Positions 1,719 through 2,732 of a DNA stretch of 64,000 nt are shown piece after piece (position 1 is the first letter of the stretch; the number at the start of each line of letters is the position of its first letter). This DNA is from Candidatus Poribacteria bacterium (GTDB lineage: Bacteria > Poribacteria > WGA-4E > WGA-3G): the NCBI GenBank assembly GCA_028824685.1, contig JAPPCZ010000053.1, positions 21,554 to 85,553 on the forward strand, written 5' to 3'. The notes beneath the pieces were generated by a model. That model made no database searches and was not told the origin of the DNA. It saw only the letters and a list, made by a program, of their open reading frames with translations. A program made the translations under genes and the position numbers.

Positions 1719-2732
1719 ATGCGCATACTTCAAACAACACTAAGCCTTATTTTAATCCTGTTCTCCACGGCTGCTGTTAGTGCGAAAATCATTTTTAGTT
1801 CCTACCAAAACGGAAACACTAACATCTATATCATGAGTGATAACGGCAGTAGTATCAGGCAGTTCTCTGCTGTTTCAGGGTCGGGTATAACACCACGTTG
1901 GTCTCCAGACGGACAACAGATCGCTTTTCTGCAGGATACAGATCCGTCAACCAGATCCGTCCGCAACGCGTTTATTATGAATGCCGATGACACGAATGTC
2001 CGACAACTCACGAATCAGAAAGAGGCAGGTTTTAATAGGTTAGCGTTTTCACCGGATGGCAAAAAACTGCTCGTCAATCGGCAGATAGACATAGGTGAAA
2101 AAAATGCTGGGCTTTATGTTGTGGATATTAAAACTAAGAATATCACGCAGATTTCTGACATCAGAATGTTTGACTTTGATTGGTCACCTGATGGAAAAGA
2201 AATTATATTTTTGAAAACCGAATGGTGGATTGAGAATCATAATCTTTGGATAATGAATGCCGATGGCACGGACACTCGCCCGTGGATACGACTGAATAAA
2301 ACTTTTTACCCCAGTAATCCAAGATGGTCGCCAAACGGTCAACGTATTCTGTATACCGAAACAGACCTACGTTTCCGAAACGGGGGTAATTCGGTTGGTC
2401 ATGCAGGCACATACCGATATATGATACGCAACGCGGATGGTGGTGCTCCACGGAATTTGGCTATTCCGAAAGATATTATGCCCGTTTCTGTTGCTTGGAT
2501 GAATAGTGGAAGGTCAGTGCTTTTCAGTGCGATTAAATTCTCGCACAGGAAGAATCCGAATCATTTTGAGCAACTCTATCGGTATGATATTGCAACGAGG
2601 AAGGTCAGGCAATTGACGGATGGTCCTGGTGATAAATGGAGAGTAGATTGGGTTCGCGGTGCCCATGCCGTTTCTCCTGCGGGTAAGCAATCGGTGCGGT
2701 GGGGTGAACTCAAAAAGGCGTATTCGGATTGA
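1719..2732 (+). CDS. Secreted PD40/TolB-like beta-propeller repeat protein (third tandem paralog)
   Basis: RBS AAGGAGA and signal peptide. Motifs RWSPDGQQ, FSPDGKK, WSPDGKE and RWSPNGQR. C-terminal tag VSPAGKQSVRWGELKKAYSD. Confidence 0.85.
   Translation: MRILQTTLSLILILFSTAAVSAKIIFSSYQNGNTNIYIMSDNGSSIRQFSAVSGSGITPRWSPDGQQIAFLQDTDPSTRSVRNAFIMNADDTNVRQLTNQKEAGFNRLAFSPDGKKLLVNRQIDIGEKNAGLYVVDIKTKNITQISDIRMFDFDWSPDGKEIIFLKTEWWIENHNLWIMNADGTDTRPWIRLNKTFYPSNPRWSPNGQRILYTETDLRFRNGGNSVGHAGTYRYMIRNADGGAPRNLAIPKDIMPVSVAWMNSGRSVLFSAIKFSHRKNPNHFEQLYRYDIATRKVRQLTDGPGDKWRVDWVRGAHAVSPAGKQSVRWGELKKAYSD

Follow-up and report, generated by a model that had tools for sequence, protein, structure and literature searches.

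Three C-terminal sorting signals, LPXTG, PEP-CTERM and the T9SS CTD, each pointed the way to an envelope machine of its own. To our knowledge, every described class of C-terminal sorting signal is defined by a TM helix or a folded domain; the tail described here has neither. LPXTG, PEP-CTERM, GlyGly-CTERM and MYXO-CTERM signals are short near-C-terminal signatures on many unrelated exported proteins of one lineage, a layout that the tail shares, and in the LPXTG/PEP-CTERM class, as in the tail, the motif is followed by a basic stub. LamG proteins are typical PEP-CTERM cargo in PVC bacteria. LPXTG, PEP-CTERM and rhombosortase signals have a TM helix and then a basic cluster after the motif, however, whereas the tail has only 1–16 polar residues. 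Dockerin–cohesin systems likewise provide many small modules with one C-terminal tag that may fit a shared scaffold. The tail is a linear peptide, whereas dockerins fold into a calcium-binding domain of ~70 residues, and we know of no cohesin-like receptor for the tail. Braun lipoprotein (Lpp) shares with the tail a conserved near-C-terminal lysine as a possible attachment point. In Lpp this lysine is the terminal residue of a single protein and is linked to peptidoglycan by an L,D-transpeptidase, whereas the tail lysines precede a variable stub in ~170 proteins.

The type A CTD of T9SS (TIGR04183/PF18962 Por_Secre_tail, FlgD_ig-like; PMC4560394, PMC5562754, PMC11969387) resembles the tail in its C-terminal position as a signal and in its Sec-exported cargo, most of it glycan-binding proteins or propellers. 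It is a folded beta-sandwich of ~60–100 residues with motifs B, D and E, and even 'short' CTDs comprise ~60 residues with all three (PMC11969387). In known T9SS cargo, a cleavage-site motif lies 6–11 residues upstream of CTD motif B, PorU-type cleavage occurs just before the CTD, and the new C-terminus is glycan-linked (PMC11969387). Cleavage by P. gingivalis PorU is described as sequence-independent (PMC4804311). The tail, by contrast, is a stretch of 17–20 disordered residues without motifs B, D and E, and most of its carriers, unlike CTD cargo, have no CTD at all. The cleavage-site motif of T9SS cargo (PT/GI in Prevotella) is unrelated to it in sequence and far less conserved.

The window, a 64,000-nucleotide stretch of a Candidatus Poribacteria genome, contains the following genes.

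2..529, plus strand: PD40 propeller gene cut by the window start, 3' part only; tail SVSPAGKRSVRWGELKKAYSD, then stop, at 464-529.
634..1596, plus strand: PD40 propeller protein with signal peptide, 320 aa from Met 634; tail SVSPAGKHPVRWGELKKAYSD, then stop, at 1531-1596.
1719..2732, plus strand: PD40 propeller protein with signal peptide, 337 aa; tail AHAVSPAGKQSVRWGELKKAYSD, then stop, at 2661-2732, the tail under study.
2867..3778, plus strand: Laminin_G_3 protein with signal peptide, 303 aa; tail LSVEPIQKLSTVWGALKAKR, then stop, at 3715-3778.
23153..23740, plus strand: ORF without the tail and with a T9SS-type CTD (NYPNPFNPETWIPY to the terminal TRKMLIRK), the window's other C-terminal signal, listed for contrast.
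51593..52393, minus strand: Laminin_G_3 protein with signal peptide, 266 aa; tail AAVEATGKLTTTWANLKR, then stop, at 51593-51650.
59812..60867, plus strand: PD40 propeller protein with signal peptide, 351 aa; tail SVSPHGKLPTQWGEKKQNISQ, then stop, at 60800-60867.

A first-pass annotation, made from the sequence alone, had noticed that six of these proteins end alike. Translation of the six ranges reproduces the tails that it quoted exactly; the carriers are of two fold types, four PD40 propellers and two Laminin_G_3 proteins, and no hydrophobic segment follows the motif in any of the six. Pfam and NCBIfam scans of these six proteins gave no CTD match, no model in either collection covers the tail, and literature searches on Poribacteria, with T9SS or with laminin G C-termini, found nothing on the motif. 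The tail is a previously undescribed C-terminal peptide of exported Poribacteria proteins. It probably represents a novel type of label for addressing or anchoring, linked to the type-IX-like secretion machinery of the phylum.

The consensus is L-x-V-[ESD]-P-x-[GDN]-K-L-[TA]-T-T-W-[GA]-x-[LI]-K. A polar or basic stub that varies between copies comes after it, and the tail has ~17–20 residues. Four residues are near-invariant: V(-10), K(-5), W(0) and K(+4). A strict pattern, [GQNDS]K..[TVSI].W[GAS]..K, was scanned against all stop-to-stop ORFs of the whole 5.4-Mb genome and matched 126 times at 12 residues or fewer before a stop and five times elsewhere, against a mean of 0.05 C-terminal matches and 1.75 at any position in 20 residue-shuffled proteomes. 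A 21-position HMM (E <= 1e-3) found 146 C-terminal and only four internal matches in the same genome. Three of these four lie 25 residues from the end and the other directly precedes a T9SS-type CTD, so the frequent internal occurrence that would speak against a terminal signal is not seen. The profile total is 146–170 tagged ORFs, ~4% of the genes of the genome. After K(+4) come 1–12 polar residues in this genome (mode 3), and the residues at the very C-terminus are variable, mainly K, R, Q, S or D.

The carriers fall into 37 BLAST clusters unrelated in sequence. Pfam assignments, made for only about a dozen of these clusters, include Laminin_G_3, PD40, CBM9, CBM4_9, NPCBM, DUF1080, 3keto-disac_hyd, DUF4960 and DUF1349. 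Nearly all carriers are binding modules that stand alone, and their median length is 263 aa. The enrichment among signal-peptide proteins that the first-pass annotation had proposed to look for is strong: 132 of 146 tagged ORFs have a signal peptide, compared with 1095 of the 3344 ORFs in the background (odds ratio 19, p = 5e-46). In other phyla, cargo of this kind is displayed by T9SS or PEP-CTERM systems. Among the genomes sampled, the tail profile matches 176/176 from Poribacteria and 0/225 from other phyla. With 37 unrelated clusters and this distribution, the tail is not confined to recently shuffled paralogues. About one gene in 25 is labelled, and the label is present in every Poribacteria genome sampled; the 21-position profile can be used directly as an annotation model and phylum marker.

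Conservation acts on the peptide. Codons at the conserved tail positions match genome-wide usage, identical residues share a codon in only 42% of cases, and the tag DNA is only 58% identical between copies, with every synonymous codon in use. Since synonymous codons vary freely, the tail is conserved at the protein level. Among the best 120 database homologues of each query, the tail is kept in 112/120 for the LamG protein 51593..52393 and in 117/120 for the PD40 protein 59812..60867, together 229/240, at identities as low as 35%. Neither V(-10) nor K(-5) changes in any of 66 LamG and 116 PD40 homologues, and the stub after K(+4) ranges from 1 to 16 residues inside one PD40 family. In the AlphaFold2 model of the LamG protein 51593..52393, the core has a pLDDT of 93–97 and the tail (residues 250–266) of 38–41. 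This low confidence suggests that the tail is a linear motif, separate from any fold. As part of the LamG fold it is ruled out by the same values and by the absence of packing.

The two C-terminal signals of the window had been called distinct. In sequence and size this holds; the tail matches neither PF18962/TIGR04183 nor TIGR04131, the models of type A/B CTDs. The two are linked, however, in a conserved group of composite Poribacteria proteins, a minority of the cargo. A pattern scan of the whole collection found the full tag, then 6–7 residues, then NYPNPFNPETW, at 104 sites or more. Among the matches listed, almost all records that name a phylum are Candidatus Poribacteria, and several others are titled only 'uncultured bacterium'. 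A composite protein matches PF18962/PF13860 solely downstream of the tag. In composites the tag thus occupies the position of the T9SS cleavage-site motif, 6–7 residues before the CTD; the six window proteins and ~170 others have no CTD. Within this genome the tag precedes the CTD in only 3 of 38 CTD proteins, and most of these ~38 large proteins have a conserved helical module, with the pattern F-x-R-G-I..L-E.L-L..L.P-K.T, directly N-terminal of the CTD. FG-GAP/ASPIC paralogues without a CTD lack the tag too, and no CTD occurs among the best 120 matches of either the LamG or the PD40 search. When the tag profile was aligned by hhalign with 35 CTDs from this genome, no similarity emerged (P = 0.25), and the idea that the tail mimics the last CTD beta-strand (G-D-F-T-A-T-R-K-M-L-I-L-K against G-K-L-T-T-T-W-G-x-L-K) was rejected on this value. 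Packing of the tail on the CTD as an extra strand was also rejected. In the AlphaFold2 model of a tag–CTD construct the tag is coil at pLDDT 58–60 (about 59) and the adjoining CTD has 93–96. Outside the phylum, the matches listed include single ones in Ignavibacteriaceae, Bacteroidetes and Prolixibacteraceae. These three are read as chance: the V-E-P..G-K half is missing from the Ignavibacteriaceae match, and re-scanning turned up nothing in frame for the other two.

Poribacteria encode T9SS-like machinery: an SprA-like protein, PorV and PorU-like proteins. The SprA-like ORF (~2150 aa) gives weak PF14349 matches in 58/61 Poribacteria genomes, 22 of them above the cut-off; PorV is above its cut-off in 21/21 genomes. 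PorU-like sortases also occur in 21/21, at 240–325 bits against a cut-off of 420. These C25 sortases are giant, number two or three per genome, and each has a His/Cys dyad and a CTD of its own. The motor proteins GldL and GldM were detected in 0/21 Poribacteria genomes, although GldM was found in the Prolixibacteraceae control. The Poribacteria system can thus be no more than a partial T9SS.

The tail also differs from sortase and exosortase tags, as had been proposed: it has no TM helix, and no NCBIfam sorting-signal family matches at E <= 0.1. An outer-membrane beta-signal is a C-terminal strand with an aromatic residue as its last; the tails have variable end residues, and their carriers are soluble lectin and propeller folds. 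PDZ domains and tail-specific proteases require a fixed distance to the carboxylate, whereas the stub spans 1–12 residues in the genome and 1–16 in the PD40 family. A streptide-like Lys–Trp crosslink, an encapsulin cargo peptide and a BMC encapsulation peptide were set aside because their spacing differs and because the tail carriers have signal peptides.

The first-pass annotation had suggested a sorting, attachment or processing signal. This is partly supported and remains the most economical account, because the tail is modular, sits on at least 37 unrelated families, is strongly associated with signal peptides, and has no TM segment and no match to a sortase, exosortase or T9SS model; no processing enzyme could be tied to it. 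We regard the tail as a Poribacteria-specific linear motif that is read in trans, a post-Sec sorting or attachment signal for surface-destined proteins, with a probability of roughly 0.5. The proposed course is as follows. (i) Small single-domain lectin-like, carbohydrate-binding and propeller carriers cross the inner membrane via Sec. (ii) An envelope factor would then recognize the flexible tail. (iii) After loss of the CTD or of the 1–16-residue stub, both classes of protein would end at about ...TTWGxIK; a common end is proposed because the same peptide immediately precedes a removable CTD in other proteins of the phylum. (iv) The motif would mark the mature C-terminus of surface-destined proteins. 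(v) A T9SS-like branch may read the tail either as a cleavage/transfer determinant or as an epitope whose docking keeps the protein at the cell surface.

We infer that the likeliest candidate reader is this T9SS-like attachment branch, with PorV and the two or three PorU-like C25 sortases. The gene-neighbourhood search yielded no convincing alternative. A single family, FG-GAP_3 + UnbV_ASPIC, was enriched at a distance of up to two genes from tagged ones (7 of 11 paralogues, p = 4e-5), and the enrichment held up poorly in two other closed genomes, where a tag lies within 2.5 kb in 7/20 regions against ~16% expected. The family was dropped as a reader, and its weak proximity signal probably reflects shared function. 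Phylogenetic profiling, also proposed in the first-pass annotation, cannot single out a co-occurring enzyme, because the tag is in 176/176 Poribacteria genomes and in 0/225 outside. Several observations weigh against the preferred reading: outer-membrane transit in every known T9SS depends on a folded CTD, which tag-only proteins do not have; cleavage by P. gingivalis PorU is described as sequence-independent (PMC4804311); the GldL/GldM motor is undetected in the 21 Poribacteria genomes; tagged CTD proteins are few in this genome (3/38); and the FG-GAP/ASPIC paralogues without a CTD have no tail in its place. Knowing the reader would show how uncultivated symbionts of sponges assemble their surface lectin and carbohydrate-binding repertoire, which is probably central to recognition of, and feeding on, host matrix glycans. 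It would also clarify the role of an SprA/PorV/PorU-like set outside Bacteroidota without a PorL/M motor.

A possible, if somewhat unlikely, alternative is that the tail is a non-covalent, dockerin-like docking peptide for a multivalent envelope receptor and acts without T9SS processing. Possible receptors are a module of the large CTD-anchored proteins, a protein of the outer membrane, and peptidoglycan/LPS; binding would assemble many small lectin and CBM modules into a surface glycan-binding array. The cargo, almost entirely stand-alone binding modules, suits such an array, as does the ratio of ~170 small tagged proteins to ~38 large CTD proteins, most of them with the shared pre-CTD helical module. 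A disordered linear motif at a variable distance from the C-terminus would also serve for docking; since this distance varies, the carboxylate itself is not read. Docking leaves unexplained, however, why the motif is placed C-terminally or before a CTD and is nearly absent internally, and a 17-residue peptide is far below the size of any known dockerin.

Rather doubtful is a bolder form of the preferred reading, in which the tail is a self-sufficient sortase-type signal that needs neither TM helix nor folded CTD. A giant PorU-like paralogue would be the enzyme, reading V-x-P-x-G-K-L-T-T-T-W-G-x-I-K on the non-prime side and cutting after K(+4). The leaving group would be the 1–16-residue stub or a whole CTD, and the protein would then be transferred to a surface glycolipid or wall polymer. 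If so, an unrecognized type-IX-like sorting branch outside Bacteroidota would account for the display of ~4% of the proteome.

It is still less likely that the tail serves for retention in the periplasm or for anchoring at a membrane interface. In this view L, W and I would make up one face of a short amphipathic element flanked by lysines, and the element would tether proteins exported by Sec either to a leaflet of a membrane or to the peptidoglycan inside the periplasm. The C-terminal amphipathic helix of PBP5 is a known parallel for the former, and lysine transpeptidation as in Braun lipoprotein a possible chemistry for the latter. AlphaFold2 draws residues 253–265 of the LamG protein 51593..52393 as a helix, at a pLDDT of about 40, and two invariant lysines with one invariant tryptophan would suit an interface. 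PD40/TolB-like propellers are classically periplasmic (NCBIfam gives TolB-type matches), and tag-only proteins have no recognized outer-membrane export signal. Against this, the hydrophobic face is very weak (three residues), the Thr-rich core with its central Gly is a poor helix former, and the conserved lysines are not the terminal residue. Sequence specificity far exceeds the needs of generic membrane binding, the same motif precedes the CTD on surface-exported proteins, and no named cargo cluster is a classical periplasmic housekeeping protein (Pfam on about a dozen of 37).

That the tail is a functionless vestige, a passenger–CTD linker left by repeated CTD loss, is strongly disfavoured. 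Its sequence is the same as that of the junction in tag–CTD proteins, but each of the 176 genomes keeps it, with ~170 copies per genome; the V, the W and both K residues are invariant in homologues at 35% identity while synonymous sites and stub drift, and tag-only proteins far outnumber composites, with no CTD in the best 120 LamG and PD40 matches. An artefact, either a repeated DNA element at gene ends or an intramolecular strand of one fold, is refuted: a very abundant REP-like palindromic repeat does lie just downstream of several tagged genes, but it begins 3' of the stop codon, the tag codons drift (58% DNA identity, all synonymous codons used), and 37 unrelated folds carry the tail, unpacked against the domain in the AlphaFold2 models.

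Sponge metatranscriptome contigs map to positions 1760-2022 and 2441-2641, within the PD40 gene 1719..2732.

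The C-terminal tag of the window's proteins is a modular, disordered and C-terminally restricted peptide under strong selection at the protein level, carried by Sec-exported binding modules. Translation recovered all six ORFs of the first-pass annotation, with the ends it had reported:

464-529, tail of a PD40 beta-propeller protein
1531-1596, tail of a PD40 beta-propeller protein
2661-2732, tail of a PD40 beta-propeller protein
3715-3778, tail of a Laminin_G_3 (LamG) protein
51593-51650, minus strand, tail of a Laminin_G_3 (LamG) protein
60800-60867, tail of a PD40 beta-propeller protein

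A cleavable-type signal peptide is predicted at each of the six N-termini, and Pfam and NCBIfam scans gave no model covering the last 20 residues. As claimed, no hydrophobic segment follows the motif; only a few polar residues do so in all six. The window is part of contig C15 (21554-85553) in an assembly of 5.41 Mb, 112 contigs and 42.9% GC. Across all stop-to-stop ORFs of at least 60 aa in this genome, 126 matches to the motif pattern [GQNDS]K..[TVSI].W[GAS]..K lay no more than 12 residues from the stop and 5 lay farther away; the mean of 20 residue-shuffled proteomes was 0.05 C-terminal and 1.75 total matches. With a 21-position HMM built from the pattern sites, C-terminal matches numbered 146 at an E-value cut-off of 1e-3 and about 170 at a cut-off of 1; about 4% of the roughly 4200 genes in a crude call set are tagged. 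The tags share the consensus L-[ASP]-V-[ESD]-[PA]-x-[GDN]-K-L-[TA]-T-T-W-[GA]-x-[LI]-K, after which comes a K/R/Q/S-rich stub of 1-12 residues (mode 3). Either of the two lysines or the tryptophan is replaced in only a handful of the ~170 copies. The motif, described earlier as lying at the extreme C-terminus, is indeed infrequent elsewhere, with only 4 internal HMM matches against 146 C-terminal ones. One of the four belongs to a protein with a T9SS-type CTD directly after the motif, and three to PD40 paralogues with a 25-residue extension:

Contig C18, 15549-16713 (0-based ORF coordinates), PD40 paralogue with post-tag extension
Contig C52, 24031-25215, minus strand, PD40 paralogue with post-tag extension
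Contig C100, 32712-33837 (0-based ORF coordinates), PD40 paralogue with post-tag extension

This conserved extension (K-K-F-L-Q-S-R-S-E-A-F-K-A-L-S-Q-N-V-L-F-Y-L-Q-N-Q-R) looks like an amphipathic helix and is, besides the CTD, the sole sequence seen downstream of the motif.

The suspected association with export proved strong. Read from an ATG start, 132/146 tagged proteins begin with a signal-peptide-like segment, compared with 1095/3344 of the other long ORFs (p = 5e-46, odds ratio 19); of the remaining 14, most are fragments or show such a segment when read from GTG or TTG. Nor is the tag confined to recent paralogues: after stripping of signal peptide and tail, carriers fell into 37 clusters without a BLAST link at 1e-5. 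LamG (73 proteins) and PD40 (16) are joined by many small families, and Pfam identified CBM9, CBM4_9, NPCBM, 3-keto-disaccharide hydrolase (DUF1080), DUF4960 and DUF1349 among the cluster representatives. Further carriers look, by their sequences, like Kelch, WD40 and YWTD propellers and a zinc metalloprotease. With a median length of 263 aa, the carriers are mostly stand-alone binding modules; one carrier is 1433 residues long. A second tagged gene is adjacent in 73/165 cases.

Conservation acts on the peptide. Every synonymous codon occurs at the conserved tag positions, in proportions typical of the genome: AAA:AAG is 94:32 and 88:38 for lysine in the tag versus 72:28 genome-wide, and all four Thr and all six Leu codons occur. 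Tag copies share 58% DNA identity, and codons are identical at only 42% of matching residues. The tail is kept in 112/120 homologues of a window LamG protein and 117/120 of a window PD40 protein, at identities down to 35%; entries without it are truncated or frameshifted. Numbered from the tryptophan, neither V(-10) nor K(-5) varies within the two homologue sets, and the stub after K(+4) is unconserved (1 to 16 residues). Codon drift, retention in homologues and invariant residues next to a variable stub thus demonstrate strong purifying selection on the motif as a peptide, not on the stub. In an AlphaFold2 model of a window LamG protein (82-sequence alignment), pLDDT was 93-97 across the lectin core and fell to 38-41 over residues 250-266. 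The genome's tag+CTD protein was modelled over its C-terminal 141 residues (75-sequence alignment): here the CTD scored 93-96 and the tag was a coil at 58-60, with no packing against the CTD. These models rule out the tail as part of the carrier fold; its low pLDDT and absent packing point to a flexible linear motif, which would necessarily be read in trans.

The tag profile matched 176/176 genomes of the phylum (31 genera, 11 families), and a first look gave 29-357 candidates per genome. A 401-genome search at E <= 1e-4 matched the same 176 genomes and 0/225 genomes outside the phylum. Within the paper library searched, no publication describing the motif was found. If the tag is a C-terminal sorting signal, as we infer, it is one lacking both a transmembrane helix and a folded domain.

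The genome encodes 38 proteins with a highly conserved CTD of ~90 residues (NYPNPFNPETWIPY ... TRKMLI[LR]K, then stop). The tag, intact or degenerate, lies immediately ahead of the CTD in 3/38. The pattern W-[GA]-x-h-K-x(4-9)-N-[YF]-P-N-P-F-N matched at least 119 candidate composite loci in a public genome collection, and at least 104 junctions read ...AVEPxGKxxTTWGKIK-[TA]AEVFQ-NYPNPF. Among the matches listed, named records are almost all Candidatus Poribacteria, several more being only 'uncultured bacterium'; an Ignavibacteriaceae locus lacking the V-E-P..G-K half, and Bacteroidetes and Prolixibacteraceae loci without an in-frame match on re-scan, were read as chance. FG-GAP_3 + UnbV_ASPIC proteins make up the main composite family, and their CTD is recognized by PF18962 and PF13860. 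Tag and CTD profiles show no similarity; where a tagged protein has a CTD, the tag sits at the passenger/CTD junction. One of the 38 CTD proteins is encoded in the window at 23153-23740 (+). About 28/38 have a different junction: immediately ahead of the CTD they share a conserved, helical-looking sequence, F-[QR]-[RKQ]-G-I-x-x-L-E-x-L-L-x-x-L-x-P-[KE]-x-T-x-L-L, possibly a receptor or handling module.

In T9SS cargo, PorU cleaves immediately upstream of the CTD and a glycan is joined to the C-terminus so exposed; the shortest known CTDs still have ~60 residues with motifs B, D and E, and the cleavage site is marked by a modest motif 6-11 residues upstream of motif B (PMC4560394, PMC5562754, PMC11969387). 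A T9SS-like set, here outside Bacteroidota, is present:

Contig C36, 7652-14224, PorU-like C25 sortase
Contig C11, 313-6774, PorU-like C25 sortase
Contig C64, 53895-59210, PorU-like C25 sortase (the three span 1756-2163 aa)
Contig C74, 59541-60479, PorV
Contig C52, 16965-23438, SprA-like ORF (2157 aa)

The three PorU-like proteins have an intact His/Cys dyad and end in a CTD of their own. Two of ~2100 aa occur in every one of 21 genomes searched; the third, ~1770 aa, is seemingly limited to the window's own family. PorV scored above cut-off in 21/21 genomes, and a single SprA-like ORF of ~2150 aa, with weak PF14349 matches, was found in 58/61. GldM and GldL were detected in 0/21 Poribacteria genomes, GldM being detected in a Prolixibacteraceae control.

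Removal of the stub or the CTD would leave both protein classes ending at about ...TTWGxIK. The tag is read as a sorting or attachment signal (probability about 0.5); given this common end, it would most probably act at the mature C-terminus, either as an epitope that docks onto a surface receptor or, in the boldest version, as a determinant for a PorU-like transpeptidase, a specific mechanism that is rather unlikely. Against this reading, tag-only proteins, those without a CTD, have no known route across the outer membrane, PorU cleavage in P. gingivalis is described as sequence-independent (PMC4804311), the PorL/M motor is undetectable, and no reader, an envelope factor recognizing the tag, was found. 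Purely periplasmic anchoring by the tag is less probable still, and a vestigial junction or artefact is excluded for practical purposes.

Phylogenetic profiling, suggested earlier for finding a co-occurring enzyme, was uninformative because the tag's distribution is all-or-none (176/176 inside the phylum, 0/225 outside). Neighbourhood analysis singled out the FG-GAP/ASPIC family, 7/11 paralogues lying within 2 genes of a tagged gene in this genome (p = 4e-5). Two further closed Poribacteria genomes supplied 20 regions: a tagged gene lay within 2.5 kb in 7/20 and anywhere in the 20-kb region in 9; with this weak association the candidate was dropped as reader and treated as co-location of functionally related genes. 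These FG-GAP_3 + UnbV_ASPIC (CRTAC1-like) genes, ~550 aa, often stand in the same orientation beside runs of tagged LamG genes, and one paralogue has tag plus CTD. Loci include, among others:

Contig C84, 23647-27876, FG-GAP_3 + UnbV_ASPIC locus
Contig C57, 52323-57713, FG-GAP_3 + UnbV_ASPIC locus
Contig C53, 57626-60832, FG-GAP_3 + UnbV_ASPIC locus
Closed genomes G034 and G022, regions L132-L151

Sponge metagenomes contain window DNA. Two stretches of a PD40 gene, 1760-2022 and 2441-2641, are also matched by contigs from a sponge metatranscriptome; as these could stem from contaminating DNA, they argue only weakly for transcription. A palindromic repeat of REP type, its core approximately GGTAGGAGGGAACTCCGATTCCCGAC...GTCGCGATTCGGAGATCGCTCCTAC, starts 3' of the stop codon of tagged genes and fills the spacers 1597-1718 and 2733-2866 after tagged PD40 genes. 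It recurs on contig C15 and genome-wide (>500 short blastn matches), has a metatranscriptome depth of 74-248 versus 0-6 on flanking genes, and yields spurious ORF fragments such as 'RELRFPT..RSRFGDRSY'. Adjoining a tagged LamG gene, a TPR protein gene at 49713-51425 (+) encodes an unbroken run of four 34-residue repeats that agree in every letter (NAKLYNGRGVAKRENRQYVGAVADFDEAIRLDPN) plus near-identical units, a pattern that indicates either assembly collapse or a very recent expansion of the tandem repeat.
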